This document shows positions 8,526 to 53,049 of a stretch of DNA of 56,856 nucleotides, piece by piece. The stretch spans positions 1-56,856 of the forward strand of contig JAUUXD010000001.1 in assembly GCA_030588705.1 (NCBI GenBank), given 5' to 3'. Under the pieces are notes generated by a model. It was not told the origin of the DNA. It saw only the letters and a list, made by a program, of their open reading frames with translations, and searched no databases. A program made the position numbers and the translations under genes. Numbering within the stretch: the stretch's first letter is position 1; each line of letters begins with the position of its first letter. Origin of the DNA: a bacterium. Lineage in GTDB: Bacteria; Babelota; Babeliae; Babelales; Vermiphilaceae.

Positions 8526-8537
8526 AAGGAGTTTGGC

Positions 8538-10487
8538 ATGAAAACGCTTTCATGGATTATGGCATCTTTACTATTAAGCAACGCCCTATACGCAGAAGAT
8601 ACAAAACCGGTTGATGAACATGGCCAGATTGATTTCAATGCCATGATAGAACAAGCAGATACACTCATCACACAAGAACTCAGCCTTGAACAGCTTTTTC
8701 ATATAGGAAATACCGCTCTCAATGAAGGCAAGATTGATGATGCCATTGATTATTTCACCCGAGGTACCAAGAAAGAACAATCATCCCCTCAACTCTGGTT
8801 TAATCTTGGCGTCGCCTACGAACGAAAAGGAGATATCGATAACGCCATTGAAGCGTATAAAGATGCAATCCTCCTCAGGCTTGATTACATAAAGGCACAT
8901 CAGCAACTTGCTCCGTTATTGCAACGAAAAGGGAACATTGAGGAAGCAACGGTTCATTTCCAACACGCGGCCAATTTGGATCACAATCTCGTTGATGCGA
9001 GTTTAACCGCCGCCCGCCTCCTGTGTCAGCAAGAACGCTTTCCCGAATCATTACCTTATTTTGATCGCACATTAAAAGCACGTCCGGATGACGTGGTGCT
9101 TACGTTTGAATACGCAAACACGCTAACAACGTGCAATCACAATGAGCAGGCCCTTACATTATACCTTGAGCTACTAAAGACAAGGCCAAACGACGCAATG
9201 ATACTCTACAATACTGCTTTCACGCTCAAAAAACTGGGGCGCATCACTGAGGCAATGCCCTACTATCAAGCAGCCCTTGCTCGCAATCCAAACCATACTG
9301 AAGCACATTTTAGCCTCGGCCTTGCGTACCTGGCCATCGGTGATTTCAAACGAGGATGGCCAGAGTATGAATATCGCTGGAAGCGGAATACACAACTTTC
9401 TCCTCGCAATTTTTCAAAACCACAATGGGATGGATCACCACTGGTAGGAAAAACATTACTCATTCATGCAGAACAAGGCCTTGGGGACACGTTCCAATTT
9501 ATTCGCTATGTACGCGAGGTAAAGGAACAATACAACACCACCATCATATTTGCTGCACAACGACCACTGCACACCATCATCTCTCGCTGTTGCCCCTACA
9601 TCGATCGCGTAGTCACCCTTTCGGATATCCCTACCTCGTTTGATGTTCATATCCCACTCATGAGTTTGCCTCTTCTATTCAAAACGGAAGAAAAAACGAT
9701 TCCCACACGTATTCCCTACATTTTCCCCGATGACGGACTCGTAGAACATTGGAAACAGGTATTAGCTCACGACAATAATCTTAAAGTGGGGATCTGCTTC
9801 CAAGGAAACAGTAAATATAGTACCGCCGTTTTACGAGCAGCAGTTGCTTCCAAATCATTATCGGTACATAAATTGGCACCACTATCAGAACTGGAAGGAA
9901 TAAGCATCTATTGTCTCCAAAAAGAGACCGGAACCGATCAGCTTAAGCGCATCTCTCCTCGTTTTAATCTTCATCGTTTTGATGATACGTTTGATACCAC
10001 TAATGGCAGATTTATGGATACCGCTGCCGTCATCAAAAATCTTGATCTGGTGATTACGGTGGATACATCTATTGCGCACCTTGCAGGAGCCATTGGCACG
10101 CCAACCTGGATCATCTTACCAGAACCTGCTGACTGGCGATGGATGCTCAAACGTTCCGATACTCCTTGGTATCCAAAAAATGTGCGCCTCTTTCGACAAC
10201 CAAAAACCGGTGATTGGAACTCCGTCATCCAAACGGTAAAAGAAGAACTACAAATCTTTCTGAACAATAAAGATAGTGAAATTCACCGTGAACCGGTTAC
10301 CACAACAAACACACCGGCACCCACCCAGCATAGTGATCCCTTCAAAGCTTTGCTCAAGCTTCGAGCAGAAGCCATAAAAGATATCGATCCTAATGACACC
10401 GAAGCATTTCTACACGAATTGAAAAAAGCACATCAACTATATAAAGTGCACAAACTCATGCAAGAGATGATTCAGGATATCGCATGA
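8538..10487 (+). CDS. TPR-repeat protein fused to a GT9-like domain, paralog 2 of 3, with Sec-like leader and C-terminal helical extension
   Basis: 649 aa. The leader is MKTLSWIMASLLLSNALYA and the TPR region is longer than in paralog 1. Motifs are HAEQGLGDTFQFIRY, KVGICFQG, FMDTAAVIKNLDLVITVDTSIAHLAGAI and DWRWM..R.DTPWYP. Confidence 0.75.
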   Translation: MKTLSWIMASLLLSNALYAEDTKPVDEHGQIDFNAMIEQADTLITQELSLEQLFHIGNTALNEGKIDDAIDYFTRGTKKEQSSPQLWFNLGVAYERKGDIDNAIEAYKDAILLRLDYIKAHQQLAPLLQRKGNIEEATVHFQHAANLDHNLVDASLTAARLLCQQERFPESLPYFDRTLKARPDDVVLTFEYANTLTTCNHNEQALTLYLELLKTRPNDAMILYNTAFTLKKLGRITEAMPYYQAALARNPNHTEAHFSLGLAYLAIGDFKRGWPEYEYRWKRNTQLSPRNFSKPQWDGSPLVGKTLLIHAEQGLGDTFQFIRYVREVKEQYNTTIIFAAQRPLHTIISRCCPYIDRVVTLSDIPTSFDVHIPLMSLPLLFKTEEKTIPTRIPYIFPDDGLVEHWKQVLAHDNNLKVGICFQGNSKYSTAVLRAAVASKSLSVHKLAPLSELEGISIYCLQKETGTDQLKRISPRFNLHRFDDTFDTTNGRFMDTAAVIKNLDLVITVDTSIAHLAGAIGTPTWIILPEPADWRWMLKRSDTPWYPKNVRLFRQPKTGDWNSVIQTVKEELQIFLNNKDSEIHREPVTTTNTPAPTQHSDPFKALLKLRAEAIKDIDPNDTEAFLHELKKAHQLYKVHKLMQEMIQDIA

Positions 10488-37788: not shown

Positions 37789-37890
37789 ATCGCTACACTT
37801 TACTGACCTTGAATACTTACTAGAGTAATTAAAAAAAGAATAAAAAACAAATTTTTTAATCACTCTTTCCCTGAATCCATAAGAGGAATC

Positions 37891-37966: not shown

Positions 37967-38030
37967 ACCTATTTTTTATCCTAAAAACACTGCTTTTTAC
38001 CCCTGCTACACATGTTTCGCTGGGGGCCCC

Positions 38031-38120
38031 TACTTCGCATCGGCCATTCGACCGCTGCTACGAAGGGCAGGCCGTGCCATACGAAGCCTGCCGAGTCGGT
38101 AGACCCGGATAGGCGAAGTA
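38031..38120 (-). repeat. tRNA-linked GC-rich palindromic element A (tRNA-sized, abuts the CCA of tRNA-Gly)
   Basis: The 8-nt terminal inverted repeats are tacttcgc and gcgaagta. Internal hairpins lie at 38093-38106 and at 38066-38072 paired with 38086-38092. Positions 38078-38120 match 38324-38366 at 34 of 43 ungapped positions. Confidence 0.7.
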
Positions 38121-38196
38121 TGGAGCGGGAAACGGGTCTCGAACCCGCAACCTACAGCTTGGAAGGCTGTCGCTCTACCAATTGAGCTATTCCCGC
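38121..38196 (-). tRNA. tRNA-Gly (anticodon TCC)
   Basis: Hand-folded 76-nt cloverleaf: GCGGGAA-TA-GCTC-AATTGGTA-GAGC-G-ACAGC-CTTCCAA-GCTGT-AGGTT-GCGGG-TTCGAGA-CCCGT-TTCCCGC-T-CCA. Confidence 0.9.
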
Positions 38197-38230
38197 ATTC
38201 ATCGTAATTTTCAAATTGACTACCTTTAGC

Positions 38231-38366
38231 GGCGCAGCCAGACAAAGCTTGCTGATCCTACTTCGCATAAAGCTTCGTAGAACATACTTCTCCTTAATTT
38301 GCTATCAAAGTAAAGGCGACAGCCAGACGAAGCTTGCCGAGCCTGAAGGCCCGGATAAGCGAAGAC
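38231..38366 (-). repeat. tRNA-linked GC-rich palindromic element B (38259-38366, abuts the CCA of tRNA-Tyr) plus a 28-nt partial duplicate (38231-38258)
   Basis: The left 12-mer cctacttcgcat is identical to that of element A, and the right arm is 79 percent identical to A. The inverted repeats are aagcttcgt (38270-38278) and acgaagctt (38327-38335). The direct repeat 38231-38258 matches 38315-38343 at 25 of 28 positions. Confidence 0.7.
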
Positions 38367-38451
38367 TGGTGGCGAGAGTAGGATTCGAACCTACGAAGGC
38401 TGAGCCAACGGATTTACAGTCCGTCCCCTTTGGCCACTCGGGAATCTCGCC
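38367..38451 (-). tRNA. tRNA-Tyr (anticodon GTA), class II with long variable arm
   Basis: The 85-nt sequence is GGCGAGATTCCCGAGTGGCCAAAGGGGACGGACTGTAAATCCGTTGGCTCAGCCTTCGTAGGTTCGAATCCTACTCTCGCCACCA. The anticodon loop is CTGTAAA. Confidence 0.9.
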
Positions 38452-38513: not shown

Positions 38514-38607
38514 CCTAAAATTTACCCAAAATGCGGCCTATGGCTTCGGGCAGGATACGTGCTCTGATAGCGCACTACGCCGAAACGGCCCCCTTTCGGC
38601 CATGAAA

Positions 38608-38633
38608 GGGTATAATGAGGCCTCATTATACCC
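38608..38633. promoter_or_regulatory. Perfect 26-bp palindrome carrying TATAAT on both strands (candidate operator or dual -10 element)
   Basis: The sequence gggtataatgagg/cctcattataccc lies in the divergent spacer between tRNA-Tyr and the MutS-like gene. The palindrome is certain; its function is not. Confidence 0.4.
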
Positions 38634-38641
38634 CCGTCCCA

Positions 38642-49680: not shown

Positions 49681-52600
49681 ATGAAAACGATCACCAAATC
49701 ACCTTATTTTTGGGCACTATTTGCTGTAGCATCCTGCGCTGCTGCGTTTCTTTCCTATCGTTATTTTCCTCGCGCATTTCCCATCATTCATCTGAATATA
49801 CAAATGGATCGTTCTGAAGCGGTCAAACAAGCGCAACAGATCACAAACAAGTTTAAACTCGGCCCCAATAATGCGCGGCATGCTACTGCATTTATCACCG
49901 ACGACCCGGTAAAAACATTCATTGAGTTGGAAGCCGGCGGTAAAGAGGAGGTAGTGGCAATGATGGAACAAAACCTTTATCAGATCTACACCTGGCAAGT
50001 GCGCCAATTTAAACCATTTGAACAAAATGAAATAACGGTCCGTTTCACTCCCGAAGGCACGCCTTATGGATTTCAAGAAAAAATATCTGAAAACGAATCT
50101 GGCACAAACGTAGGGGAATCAAAAGCACAAAATGTCGCCACCTCGTTTGCACAAGCAGCCCCGTGGAACATCGATTTCGAGCAATACAAATTAGTGGAAG
50201 CATCACAAGAAAAAAAAGCGAGTGGCCGCATCGATCACACAATTATGTATGAACGAAAAGATGAAAAGATTGGTGAAGGATTTTATCGACTCAAGATAGT
50301 CGTCAGCGGTGATAACGTTTCTGAACTCACTCATTCGGTGAAAGTTCCTGATGCGTTTATCCGCCGTTATCAAGAGATGCGATCCGCAAATGAAACAATC
50401 GCCCATGCGGCTAACCTGATTATGATGCTCTTATATATGCTCGGCGGCTTGTTGATCGGCTTGCTCTTTCTATTTCGAAAACGATGGGTTATATGGCGAC
50501 CAGCATTTTCCTGGGCACTCCTTATTGCCCTGCTCTCCAGCGCAACAATCGTCAATAAACTCCCCCTCTATTGGATGGGATATAACACTGCCTTATCACC
50601 GTACGCGTTTATCATGCAGCTCGTTATTATGATCATCTCAAGCTTTATATTTTCAACCATTCTTTTTTCCGCCGTGTTCATGGGCGCAGAAAGTTTAACT
50701 CGACGCGCTTTTGGCAATCAGCTGCAGCTCTGGCACGTTTTTCAACCATCAGTGGCAAGCTCCTACACCATCCTTGGCTACACAATATCAGCATATCTTT
50801 TGGTTCCCTTCTCGCTTGCCTACGTCGTACTGTTTTATCTGTTTACTTCTCATTATCTGAACTGGTGGACTCCCTCATCCGCCCTCTTTGATCCAAACAT
50901 TTTGGCATCCTATTTCCCGTGGCTCGATTCGATTGCCATCTCACTGCAGGCAGGTTTTTATGAGGAGTGTTTATTCCGCGCCGTTCCTTTAGCCTCCGCT
51001 GCACTTCTGGGTAACCGTTACGGCAAACGGAATTGGTGGATCGCCGGTGCATTTATTCTGCAAGCAATTGTGTTTGGTGCTGCTCATGCGAACTACCCTG
51101 CCCAGCCTGCCTATGCACGTTTGGTAGAGCTCCTTGTATTCTCATCCGTGTTTGGAGCAATTTATCTGAAATTTGGCCTCTTGATTGCGGCAACTTCCCA
51201 CTTTGCCTACGATGTGTTTTGGTTTGCACTCCCGCTCTTTATATCCACCGCATCCTACGCATGGATTAATAAAATTGCGGTAATTGCATTAGCCGGCATA
51301 CCACTCTGGATTGTGGGTATATTGCGCATTAAAAGGGGTGCTTGGCTCACTATTCCCGCATCGTTCTATAATCGTGCATGGCGTCCCGCAGGAGAAAAGG
51401 AAATCACACAGGAATCCTCCTTCGCTAAAGCTACGGCGGACAGGCCTAGTATCCATGCGCGCACGTTGCATGCTTTTGTGATCGCCGGAATCATCGGCCT
51501 CGTTGGATGGACAGTCACCACACGGTTTCGAGCAGAGACCCCTTCGTTTACCGTAGGCAGGGCATCTGTTGCACACATTGCCCCACAAACATTGCAAGAA
51601 AAACAGATTGATCTAAAAAAATGGTATCAAATAGTGTATGCAATTACACAACTTGAACGATATCCTGATCCCATTAAACGGCATCGATTTATTTGGCAAA
51701 AAGGAGGCAAAGAGCTCTATCGCGAGTTTATTAACTCCTATCTTTCACCACAACTATTCGTAGCACGTTTTGTAACGTGGGACGGCAGCGTAACAGAGCG
51801 TTCAGAGGAGCATCATCTCTATTTTATGCCAAACGGTTCTTTCAGACGGTATACACACAAAATTCCTGAAGCCACACCGGGGGCATCACTTTCTAAAAAA
51901 GGGGCCAAAGAAAAAGCGCTCGCGATGATTGCCCAACAATTTAATCGCACGAAAGATCAACTTAAGGAGGTTTCAGCGGTTGCCACAAAACAACCAGAAC
52001 GATTGGATTGGAAGGTAACCTACGCAAGCACCACTGATTACCCACTTGATGAGGGTGAAGCACGCTTGGAAGTCTCTATTGCAGGAGATGAAGTAGTGGG
52101 TGCGTATCAATACATCCACGTTCCAGAACAATGGGAGCGTGCGTATGAGAATAAGCAGGCATTTTCAACTATCATCAATATGCTCTGCATGCTCATCATC
52201 TATATTCTGTTTCTTGCGTGCGCCTTTTTGTCATTTACCCGATGGAAGATTCACACAACACAGGCACTCATTTTCAACTTCGTTGGATTAAGCATCATCT
52301 TGCTGTTTGGGCTCTTTAACTATTGGCCATCGGTTATTGCCATGTTTAACACAAGCCAACCGTTTACCGACCAGCTGTTCCGCATCTTTAGTATCTCAAC
52401 GGTGATGACGGTGTTACAAGCAGCTCTGCTTGCTGTAATGATTAGTTTGGTTACCCAGGTGCGCTCAATCTATCGCGCACTCCCATCTTCTATGGCAACG
52501 GCCATCGGCATCAGTTTAGGTGCCGTCACTGCTGGATCGCTCGCCGTAATCACCTGGCTCATTCCATCCCTTTCGCCAACGTGGGCAAACTTTATGCCTC

Positions 52601-53049
52601 TCGGCTTTGCGTTTCCGGGTATCAGCGATATCAGTAGTCAACTTGTTCTCTATATCACCACTACGATTAATCTGATGCTCTTTATCGCCATAAGTGATCT
52701 GGCAACGAGTCACTGGAAACGATTACGGTTTGTGGGAGTAGGGATCTTTTTTGTAGCAGGATTTGTGCGAGCTGGGCTCATCAGCTCTTACAACATCCCG
52801 CTTTTGATAGCAACCGGGCTGCTCGTATCGTTGATCTTAGTTTGCGGATACCTCTTTGCAATTCGTTTTGATTACTCGATTGTGCCGATTGCCACGGGAA
52901 CCTACGCTATCTTGCAGCTTATGCAGCAACTGATCTTTAATGCGTATCCCTATGCCATACTATCCAACATCGCAGCTATTGCTCTGATAACGGGCGTTTC
53001 ATGGTATTGGCATACACAGATGCGGAAGAATTCTTGTTATACGACTTAA
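49681..53049 (+). CDS. Large polytopic membrane protein with a CPBP (CAAX-protease-like) intramembrane protease core and internally duplicated architecture
   Basis: 1122 aa. The CPBP motifs are FYEECLFRAV (EExxxR), FGAAHANY (FxxxH) and SHFAYDVFW (HxxxD). The second half repeats the soluble-domain plus multi-TM layout without these motifs. Confidence 0.75.
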   Translation: MKTITKSPYFWALFAVASCAAAFLSYRYFPRAFPIIHLNIQMDRSEAVKQAQQITNKFKLGPNNARHATAFITDDPVKTFIELEAGGKEEVVAMMEQNLYQIYTWQVRQFKPFEQNEITVRFTPEGTPYGFQEKISENESGTNVGESKAQNVATSFAQAAPWNIDFEQYKLVEASQEKKASGRIDHTIMYERKDEKIGEGFYRLKIVVSGDNVSELTHSVKVPDAFIRRYQEMRSANETIAHAANLIMMLLYMLGGLLIGLLFLFRKRWVIWRPAFSWALLIALLSSATIVNKLPLYWMGYNTALSPYAFIMQLVIMIISSFIFSTILFSAVFMGAESLTRRAFGNQLQLWHVFQPSVASSYTILGYTISAYLLVPFSLAYVVLFYLFTSHYLNWWTPSSALFDPNILASYFPWLDSIAISLQAGFYEECLFRAVPLASAALLGNRYGKRNWWIAGAFILQAIVFGAAHANYPAQPAYARLVELLVFSSVFGAIYLKFGLLIAATSHFAYDVFWFALPLFISTASYAWINKIAVIALAGIPLWIVGILRIKRGAWLTIPASFYNRAWRPAGEKEITQESSFAKATADRPSIHARTLHAFVIAGIIGLVGWTVTTRFRAETPSFTVGRASVAHIAPQTLQEKQIDLKKWYQIVYAITQLERYPDPIKRHRFIWQKGGKELYREFINSYLSPQLFVARFVTWDGSVTERSEEHHLYFMPNGSFRRYTHKIPEATPGASLSKKGAKEKALAMIAQQFNRTKDQLKEVSAVATKQPERLDWKVTYASTTDYPLDEGEARLEVSIAGDEVVGAYQYIHVPEQWERAYENKQAFSTIINMLCMLIIYILFLACAFLSFTRWKIHTTQALIFNFVGLSIILLFGLFNYWPSVIAMFNTSQPFTDQLFRIFSISTVMTVLQAALLAVMISLVTQVRSIYRALPSSMATAIGISLGAVTAGSLAVITWLIPSLSPTWANFMPLGFAFPGISDISSQLVLYITTTINLMLFIAISDLATSHWKRLRFVGVGIFFVAGFVRAGLISSYNIPLLIATGLLVSLILVCGYLFAIRFDYSIVPIATGTYAILQLMQQLIFNAYPYAILSNIAAIALITGVSWYWHTQMRKNSCYTT
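51416..51448. repeat. Candidate in-frame copy of the GC-rich repeat family inside the CPBP gene
   Basis: The sequence is cctccttcgctaaagctacggcggacaggcc. It has 18 identities over 21 aligned columns with the left end of element B (38257-38280). It has 23 identities over 26 aligned columns with 3471-3497. It encodes SFAKATADRP. Confidence 0.4.

Follow-up and report, generated by a model that had tools for sequence, protein, structure and literature searches.

Repetitive extragenic palindromic sequences (REPs) form inverted dimers, have complementary stem variants and G.T pairs, and are also found as copies inside genes (PMC3733652). We will compare them with two elements, A and B, found in a window of 56,856 nucleotides (the whole stretch of DNA that was analysed: positions 1 to 56,856 of contig JAUUXD010000001.1, GenBank assembly GCA_030588705.1). 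An earlier note, made from the sequence alone, had drawn attention to these elements as related sequences which begin at the first base after the CCA of tRNA-Gly and tRNA-Tyr; ARAGORN, Rfam and the sequence agree on this. Our preferred reading, to which we give a probability of about 55%, is that A and B consist of small hairpin repeats of the REP/REPIN type, clustered and inserted immediately after the CCA of the two tRNA genes. Each element is made of a hairpin unit M1, a linker and a second unit M2; in B a partial M1 3' half follows (38255–38220). The unusual trait of this repeat is the sharing of the CCA, which becomes part of the hairpin. Insertion sequences of the IS200/IS605 type also have to be considered: their insertion on the 3' side of a short target always has the same orientation and leaves no duplication, and the target is read by pairing with the DNA next to a hairpin, as established for IS608.

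The likeness with REPs, bacterial interspersed mosaic elements (BIMEs) and REPINs is found at several levels. All of them are short imperfect palindromes of 25–45 nt, oriented by their mismatches. They occur as singletons, inverted doublets and clusters, with an occasional in-frame insertion in genes; the stems of their subfamilies differ by complementary changes, G.T pairs are common, and the CGTAG/CGAAG motifs of M1 and M2 recall the GTAG tag of REPs (PMC3733652). However the position of this motif is different: in REPs GTAG (or CGTC) is unpaired at the foot of the hairpin, whereas here CGUAG/CGAAG (CUUCG on the other strand) lies within the hairpin, in a symmetric internal loop. With IS200/IS605 and the palindrome-associated transposable elements (PATEs) our units share strand-specific imperfect hairpin ends; the M1 inserts start exactly after CCA in the tRNA sense, without duplication and with the CCA paired to a TGG of the element. 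In IS608, on the other hand, the target is outside the hairpin stem and the guide is 5' of the hairpin. No TnpA was seen in the loci examined, and M1 units can be as short as 23 nt.

The M1 unit has a well defined design, CCA-NNC / UUC / GC..GC / UUC / GNN-UGG, in which the tRNA's own CCA pairs with the downstream UGG. It is strand-specific and has a 6-bp basal stem, a symmetric 3x3 internal loop (UUC/UUC) and an apical stem of varying length. On the minus strand of the window M1-A (38077..38123) reads CCA-UAC / UUC / GCCUAU-CCGGGUC-UACC-GACUCGG-CAGGC / UUC / GUA-UGG, with an apical 7-bp stem-loop at 38108–38091. M1-B (38323..38369, also minus strand) reads CCA-GUC / UUC / GCUUAU-CCGGGCC-UUCA-GGCUCGG-CAAGC / UUC / GUC-UGG, with a pyrimidine 3x3 loop and an apical 7-bp stem-loop at 38354–38337. 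The two tRNA genes, both on the minus strand, were identified by ARAGORN and Rfam. tRNA-Gly (TCC) is found at 38121..38196 (73.2 bits) and its encoded CCA (38123–38121) provides the outer 3 bp of M1-A; tRNA-Tyr (GTA) is found at 38367..38451 (tRNA model, 58.4 bits) and its CCA (38369–38367) provides the outer 3 bp of M1-B. The 5' arms of the two elements had been described as alike, and they are: they align ungapped over ~43–45 nt with 84% identity. The boundaries proposed at first have been displaced: the conserved hairpin begins with the tRNA's own C74, three bases before the proposed start, and its last bases are UGG (38123–38077 and 38369–38323).

The M1 hairpins are backed by covariation. 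Folded with the CCA, M1-A has a minimum free energy of -23.5 kcal/mol (z = -5.4, 87% of the ensemble) and M1-B of -20.9 kcal/mol (z = -4.6); in both cases none of 200 shuffled sequences was as good. The covarying hairpin seen at the outset does have one compensatory change between A and B, while its stem turns out to have 7 bp (CCGGGYC/GRCUCGG) instead of 5. The apical extension of the window copies, GCYUAU-CCGGGYC-loop-GRCUCGG-CARGC, defines a subtype of M1 which is also present in L061, L071, L022, L198, L063, L072 and L024. In nine copies of this subtype 92.7% of the cells are paired, and double-sided changes are seen at 8 pairs (0/500 shuffles). One pair had been noticed as A.C on the plus strand and G.U on the minus strand; it is real, and the G.U is invariant in the nine related copies. 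Since the opposite strand would have C.A, the M1 structure belongs to the tRNA-sense strand, either as RNA or as single-stranded DNA.

The units of 90 and 108 nt which had been proposed are each a composite of two hairpin units and a linker. M2 has the same design as M1, inverted, with purine loops (GAA or GUA) and a basal stem G[UC]CC.../...GG[AG]C. M2-A (38026..38068, minus strand), found as a pattern match, reads GCCCUUC / GUA / GCA.CGGUC-GAAU-GGCCG.UGC / GAA / G.AGGGGC and folds at -21.2 kcal/mol (z = -3.3). M2-B (38256..38284, minus strand) reads UUCUAC / GAA / GC-UUUAU-GC / GAA / GUAGGA, folds at -7.9 kcal/mol (z = -2.3) and was also found as a reverse-strand unit. The 12-mer CCTACTTCGCAT, previously pointed out as an end common to both elements, is indeed identical at 38029–38040 and 38257–38268; this shared end sits in the 3' half of M2-B. 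The inverted termini of A are present as well (38028–38038 vs 38113–38123, 11 nt, 91% complementary): UACUUCGC of M1-A is complementary to GCGAAGUA in the 3' half of M2-A. The long-range closing stem of A arises because M2 is an inverted copy of M1, so that M1 can pair with M2. The earlier note missed both this origin of the closing stem and the presence of the CCA in the hairpin. In some high-GC contigs (L098, L205) the inverted doublets are full, with an entirely reverse-complementary M1 as the right end.

In element B the linker (38285..38322, minus strand) has CUGUCGCC followed by an AU-rich stretch, with a weak promoter-like match at 38308–38281 (minus strand, consensus scan). AU-rich linkers comparable to it are found in L007, L014, L025 and L050. 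The partial third copy (38220..38255, minus strand) contains the M1 3' half and the next hairpin (..GCAAGCUUUGUCUGGCUGCGCCGCUAAAGGUAG); it is an 88% direct repeat and has no stable fold alone. It overlaps the partial duplicate described beside B, which we find at 38235–38259 vs 38320–38344 (88%), and in L003 the M1 3' halves behind tRNA-Gly and tRNA-Thr are closely similar to it. Behind element A there is a GC-rich tail (CCCCAGCGAAACAUGUGUAGCAGGGG.., 37981..38025, minus strand) with a weak fold. In the alignment it is the end of a block of ~140 nt in the Gly-Thr spacer which is present in the window and absent from L005, L010 and L012; it is probably a decayed further unit.

Altogether the window has two M1, two M2, one partial copy and one copy inside an open reading frame (ORF), with unit sizes of 26–47 nt. 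BLAST and mismatch searches of the 56.9-kb window with A and B gave no further full copies. A generalised hairpin pattern was too permissive: it gave 240 hits, mostly noise, and only GC-rich hits with short loops were used. The copy in the ORF is a degenerate unit, TCCTCC-TTC-GC-TAAA-GC-TAC-GGCGGA (51415..51440, plus strand), and its fold is no better than that of shuffled sequences. It is read through in frame as ..ESSFAKATADRP.. in an ORF of 1122 aa (49681–53049), a membrane-like protein without Pfam match for which we found no homologues.

The host of the window belongs to the Dependentiae (TM6, Babeliales-like): the NusG of the window matches Dependentiae and Babeliales proteins. A contig from a metagenome-assembled genome, SOJM01000083 (GCA_004376535.1), is 99.95% identical to the window across 6.2 kb. 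We have compared the same tRNA array in three close relatives, with 83–88% identical NusG, and in 80 species-representative Dependentiae genomes (1.5 Mb). Of the genomes surveyed none with M1 is known to be in culture; L061 comes from the complete chromosome OY969699, and the two named complete genomes of the set, Vermiphilus pyriformis and Noda2021, have no M1 at this array. The motif NNCU[UAG]CG... is found directly behind 39 of the 372 Dependentiae tRNAs, vs 0.6 expected; two of the 39 are the copies of the window itself, counted again in L001. The tRNAs which bear it are Tyr (18/70), Thr-UGU (9/71), Gly (6/72), Thr-GGU (2/74) and Trp (2/77). When the CCA is not required, the M1 pattern has 42 hits on both strands of the 1.5 Mb: 29 of them coincide exactly with a tRNA CCA, and overlaps and noise account for the other 13. 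The M2 pattern has 22 hits, 21 of which are at most 600 nt downstream of a tRNA on the same strand. The dinucleotide that follows CCA covaries with the one that precedes UGG, in combinations such as TA/TA, AC/GT, TC/GA, GC/GC, TT/AA, AT/AT, GA/TC and GT/AC; we conclude from this that the tRNA CCA pairs with the downstream UGG.

The position of the units changes rapidly. The Gly-Thr spacer has 154 nt in the window, 234 in L003, 18 in L005 and 147 in L007; the Thr-Thr spacer has 102, 546, 203 and 101 nt respectively. In relatives at 75% NusG identity the spacers have 5–19 nt. An alignment shows in L005 a clean insert of 101 nt right behind the CCA of tRNA-Thr, without duplication, which is absent from the window and from L007; the window in turn carries ~140 extra nt after tRNA-Gly. 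As the spacer lengths vary and the alignments show indels, the GC-rich blocks are insertions and not ancestral spacer. In the clade of the window M1 is found after Tyr (GTC) and Gly (TAC) in the window itself, after Tyr (TAC) in L007, after Tyr (ACC) and Thr (GTC) in L005, and after Gly and Thr (GTC) in L003. The other tRNA flanks of the window (Val, Trp and both Thr) have no element, as had been said. Occupancy by M1 is patchy on a tree of NusG, L11, L1 and L10. Copies in one genome often share even their mismatch: GTC/GCC three times in L061, GTC/GTC twice in L003. From this patchy occupancy and the similarity of copies within a genome it follows that gain, loss and copying within genomes are faster than speciation; even closely related species diverge more slowly than their units come and go. 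The 101-nt indel of L005 is also the point at which the units differ from miniature inverted-repeat transposable elements (MITEs): it has no target duplication, and among copies the outer stem varies while the interior is conserved.

Some individual loci deserve a comment. In L041 (4407–4480) a complete M1+M2 is found between a YacP-like gene and tsaE, far from tRNAs; CCA still precedes it and the 3' UGG has become GGG. In L039 (745–1434) a spacer of 690 nt after tRNA-Thr(UGU) contains a duplicated tRNA-Thr 3' fragment (..GGTTCAAGTCCGATCGCCAGCTCCA); behind it come a hairpin with complete pairing (ATCTACGCTAAAGCGTAGAT) and an M2 unit. A second widespread type of repeat (..CCGCTCATCCTGAGCTTGTCGAAGGA.., translating as 'LSLSKG' or 'FDKLR') is nested within several tRNA-linked elements in tRNA spacers of L023, L055, L061 and L085.

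The M1 core occurs in many bacterial phyla. Its minimal 21-nt form CTTCGCCAAGGCTTCGNNTGG was found in at least 120 metagenome contigs; the counts which follow, also where they are taken up again later, are among the matches listed, with a GC content of 31–67%. The triplet before the core is CCA in 92/124 and CCG in 13; with the fixed UGG the latter gives a G.U pair. A tRNA or tmRNA(-like) end abuts 57 of 123 copies (46%, by a T-loop test). Copies away from tRNAs are still preceded by CCA in 35 of 65 cases (54%, with ~1.6% expected), and by CCG in 13. The tRNAs which adjoin 39 of the copies represent ~20 isoacceptors, and 12 tmRNA genes are found in these loci: the motif is directly behind the tmRNA 3' end in the contexts inspected, and in L181 the junction was confirmed by Rfam. 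Both NN pairs are Watson-Crick in 90/121 contexts, vs 6% expected, with ten different dinucleotide combinations. When only 41 distinct 26-mers are considered, the NN pairing counts exceed those of 500/500 shuffles. Tandem arrays are found on mid- to high-GC contigs (L127 ~6371–6500; L182, minus strand), with 3–4 copies of the M1 3' half or of whole M1 units in a 30-nt period without spacers. The proposal of the earlier note to look for further copies in related genomes has been fruitful: they are found in many genomes and phyla, in tandem, inverted and inside ORFs.

Other cross-phylum loci show particular arrangements. In the pilin-like genes of L095, L125 and L201 an M1 is found within the 5' part of the coding region, between two tandem copies of the segment for the prepilin-type N-terminus (..FTLIELL..); read on the coding strand, this M1 gives ..ACQPKPWRRQA... 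In L164 (~3860–3870) tRNA-Lys(CUU) has its own CCA and then a second one, borne by the element, which opens M1 (CCACCA). In L161 (2680–3110) an 81-aa GIY-YIG nuclease (Pfam E = 2e-17) is encoded by a gene which has repeated 5' fragments of the adjacent tRNA-Ser on either side. Other small palindromes (TTCGCCCAAGGCGAA, TCCGCCTAGGGCGGA) break up these fragments, and the intact tRNA-Ser which comes next carries a minimal M1 of 23 nt.

The analysis thus points to a selfish repeat of the REP/REPIN type because the units are present or absent among close relatives, are similar within a genome, form clusters, inverted doublets and tandem arrays, and have copies inside ORFs. The REP/MITE-like origin which had been suggested is the best supported of the earlier ideas: presence and absence with a clean indel, patchy occupancy and the copies in many genomes and phyla speak for it, while the terminal repeats with target duplication and the transposase expected of a MITE were not found. 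Two differences from known REPs should be stressed. About half of the M1 copies, and nearly all those in Dependentiae, are fused to a tRNA or tmRNA CCA. REP families are usually lineage-specific, whereas the M1 core is common across phyla. Copies are found at tRNA and tmRNA ends (46% across phyla) or, in Dependentiae, nearly always in tRNA flanks, far more often than expected for intergenic CCA, which we estimate as ~1%.

A mechanism can be proposed for the spread of such repeats. The units would move as single-stranded DNA hairpins by means of a hairpin-specific recombinase. By analogy with IS200/IS605, the TGG of the element would pair with the CCA of the target; this pairing would explain the insertion exactly 3' of CCA without target duplication. 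The heavily transcribed tRNA and tmRNA genes might be favoured sites, where the CCA would be offered single-stranded. Once inserted, the units would be transcribed as part of the Tyr-Gly-Thr precursor, where their hairpins would sequester the CCA; the hairpin trailers would then be removed by endonuclease cuts and trimming. The effect of the units on the host is probably neutral to mildly regulatory. A different form of target duplication, a direct repeat of 5 nt (CCANN...CCANN), was considered and discarded: only 22/72 cases agree.

Several observations weigh against a mobile repeat of this kind. The CCA:TGG targeting is inferred from an analogy and is not a result. A mobilising gene was not detected: clustering of the ORFs around 120 metagenome copies gave no recurrent protein family or transposase, only spurious read-through ORFs and one GIY-YIG gene. 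A tblastn search of 2.2 Mb of loci with two Y1 transposase sequences, of the REP-associated tyrosine transposase (RAYT) and IS200 TnpA kinds, gave no match, which is a weak negative; neither these queries nor the clustering of flanking ORFs revealed a RAYT gene of the kind that accompanies REPs. A vehicle for spread across phyla is not apparent either, as the core has no match in the plasmid and phage collections and occurs in only 3 of 2.9 million viral contigs. The copy number per genome appears low in comparison with classical REPs, which have tens to thousands of dispersed extragenic copies: there are three sites in 56.9 kb, and the 80 relatives (1.5 Mb) have hardly any units outside tRNA flanks. 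The basal stem varies and the loops are conserved, the opposite of transposons with terminal repeats and as expected of a selected RNA structure. Finally M1-B shares 88% identity over 52 nt with the M1 behind tRNA-Tyr of L061, a genome whose NusG match is only 59% identical to the NusG of the window: such a similarity at the same tRNA could be due to purifying selection rather than transfer.

The last points lead to the first alternative, which we hold as a tentative possibility: M1 would be a cis-acting RNA module of tRNA and tmRNA precursors, maintained by selection, and its dispersed copies would be secondary. The hairpin would mask the CCA and flag the 3' end for a particular endonuclease, or shield that end from CCA-directed enzymes or 3' exonucleases. 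Such a role keeps its place because a varying stem with constant loops also fits a selected RNA: the basal stem covaries strongly and the loop bases are constant across phyla of 31–67% GC. The hairpin abuts the mature 3' end exactly, it is strand-specific with its invariant G.U, and its copies are enriched at tRNA and tmRNA, which have 3'-end processing in common. The element also lies within one transcription unit, with no terminator, and M1 is retained after tmRNA in three related high-GC contigs. However only ~10% of the surveyed tRNAs bear M1, the four closest genomes have it at different tRNAs, without orthologous conservation, and close relatives manage with spacers of 5–19 nt. More than half of the cross-phylum copies are not at tRNAs, and some are inverted, in tandem or inside ORFs. 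Judging from the established pathways of tRNA 3' maturation, a hairpin which pairs the CCA would hinder exonucleolytic trimming. The particular version proposed before, a module in which RNase P-type cleavage generates the CCA end, does not agree with the structure: the hairpin starts at C74, so a cut of this type at its 5' foot would remove the CCA, and the stem is not followed by a 3' NCCA. The RNA may have some cis-acting role other than RNase P-type processing.

The 3' ends of tRNA and tmRNA genes are classic integration sites, and a junction right at the gene end is expected from the integrase mechanism. The elements might therefore be scars of integrative elements which use these ends as attachment sites and replace the 3' end of the gene by their own copy plus element DNA. 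The sites and the exact junction would agree with this origin, and L073 does have a 3.8-kb insertion between tRNA-Tyr and tRNA-Gly. We consider it improbable: that insert does not start with M1, the window elements have no integrase and no flanking direct repeat of the tRNA 3' end, units down to 23 nt recur with identical boundaries (L161), and many copies are unrelated to tRNAs. The L073 insert (5261–9102) was also considered as an autonomous form of the repeat. It contains two paralogous secreted-looking proteins and a 397-aa DDE-type transposase (ISAs1-like, by eye); this candidate was rejected, as the insert has no M1 start and is unrelated to the hairpins.

It is equally doubtful that the elements are intrinsic terminators or attenuators between tRNA genes. 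They do form stable GC-rich hairpins directly behind a gene, and in several relatives UGGCAGGCCAUUUUUU follows M1. The U runs of these relatives fall in the loop of the next hairpin, however, and L162 has a separate canonical terminator after its M1. In the window a scan found no terminator-like site in either element, and both are placed between co-oriented tRNAs without a convincing internal promoter.

Least credible of all is an origin as decayed class II tRNA pseudogenes from tandem duplication in the array, which the tRNA-like size of the elements, their place among tRNA genes, the duplicated tRNA-Thr 3' fragment of L039 and the supposed resemblance of the interior of A to tRNA-Tyr (M2-A shares CCUUCGUAG and a UCGAAU-like stretch with its variable and T arms) would favour: ARAGORN finds only six true tRNAs in the window, Rfam gives no tRNA-like match in the elements, including the interior of A, at E <= 10, and the units are simple hairpins, not cloverleaves, which occur after some 20 isoacceptors, after tmRNA and at non-tRNA sites in many phyla.

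Other small repeats can be compared more briefly. The Rickettsia palindromic elements (RPEs) are also small palindromic repeats of a host-dependent bacterium, found in the flanks of RNA genes and in frame in proteins. RPEs differ in being longer and restricted to a lineage. To our knowledge they have no CCA or tRNA-end specificity. The attC sites of integrons are alike in design only: a conserved outer stem, an unpaired centre as strand mark, then an inner stem and an apical part which varies, with function in the folded single strand. In contrast with attC, our elements have no GTTRRRY core, integron integrase or cassette array. A resemblance of the apical arm to the E. coli REP (..CTTATCCGGCCTAC) was also considered, which found no support in a BLAST search of M1-B against 5,426 E. 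coli genomes. A scan for GC islands was not discriminating as a way to detect the elements in this genome, which has 44.5% GC.

The genes around the elements have the following order on the minus strand: tRNA-Tyr (38451–38367), tRNA-Gly (38196–38121), tRNA-Thr-UGU (37966–37891), tRNA-Thr-GGU (37788–37713), rpmG, tRNA-Trp, secE, nusG, rplK, rplA and rplJ. By consensus scan there is a promoter-like site upstream of tRNA-Tyr and no terminator-like site in either spacer or in 37967–38366; tRNA-Tyr, tRNA-Gly and the first tRNA-Thr are therefore most simply explained as one transcript. Upstream of this promoter-like site, beside a divergent MutS-like gene, there is a further GC-rich block (38540–38640, minus strand) with small palindromes and CGUAG/CGAAG motifs (GCCGAAAGGGGGCCGUUUCGGCGUAG..). 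An AT-rich block (AAAAATTTGTTTTTTATTCTTTTTTTAATTACTCTA; 37795–37850, minus strand) is found 5' of tRNA-Thr(GGU)-rpmG and is strongly conserved at the equivalent place in L003, L005, L007, L025 and L041. It is probably the promoter of the tRNA-Thr(GGU)-rpmG operon, and inserts are always upstream of it.

No description of this repeat was found in the literature searched, which included a search for the sequence itself, and no Rfam family matches the window elements (at the gathering threshold and at E <= 10) or the M1/M2 region behind the L181 tmRNA. It is possible, although we are more doubtful here, that M1 is a new cross-phylum element which engages the universal CCA end, either as the hairpin by which a new kind of mobile single-strand DNA finds its target through TGG:CCA pairing, or as a conserved precursor module which masks the CCA and controls the formation of tRNA and tmRNA 3' ends. 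Large islands which carry an integrase use the 3' ends of tRNA and tmRNA genes; a tiny hairpin which shares the CCA would use the same landmark in a different way. As mobile DNA, it would be a natural case of a target chosen through three base pairs which stack on a hairpin, and it would account for a common source of spurious small ORFs beside tRNA genes. A function as RNA would bear on the way in which tRNA 3' ends are finished in bacteria with an encoded CCA and reduced sets of RNases: the Dependentiae and possibly, judged from one low-GC contig only, the candidate phyla radiation. On either reading the long structured trailers of the Tyr-Gly-Thr operon must be removed.

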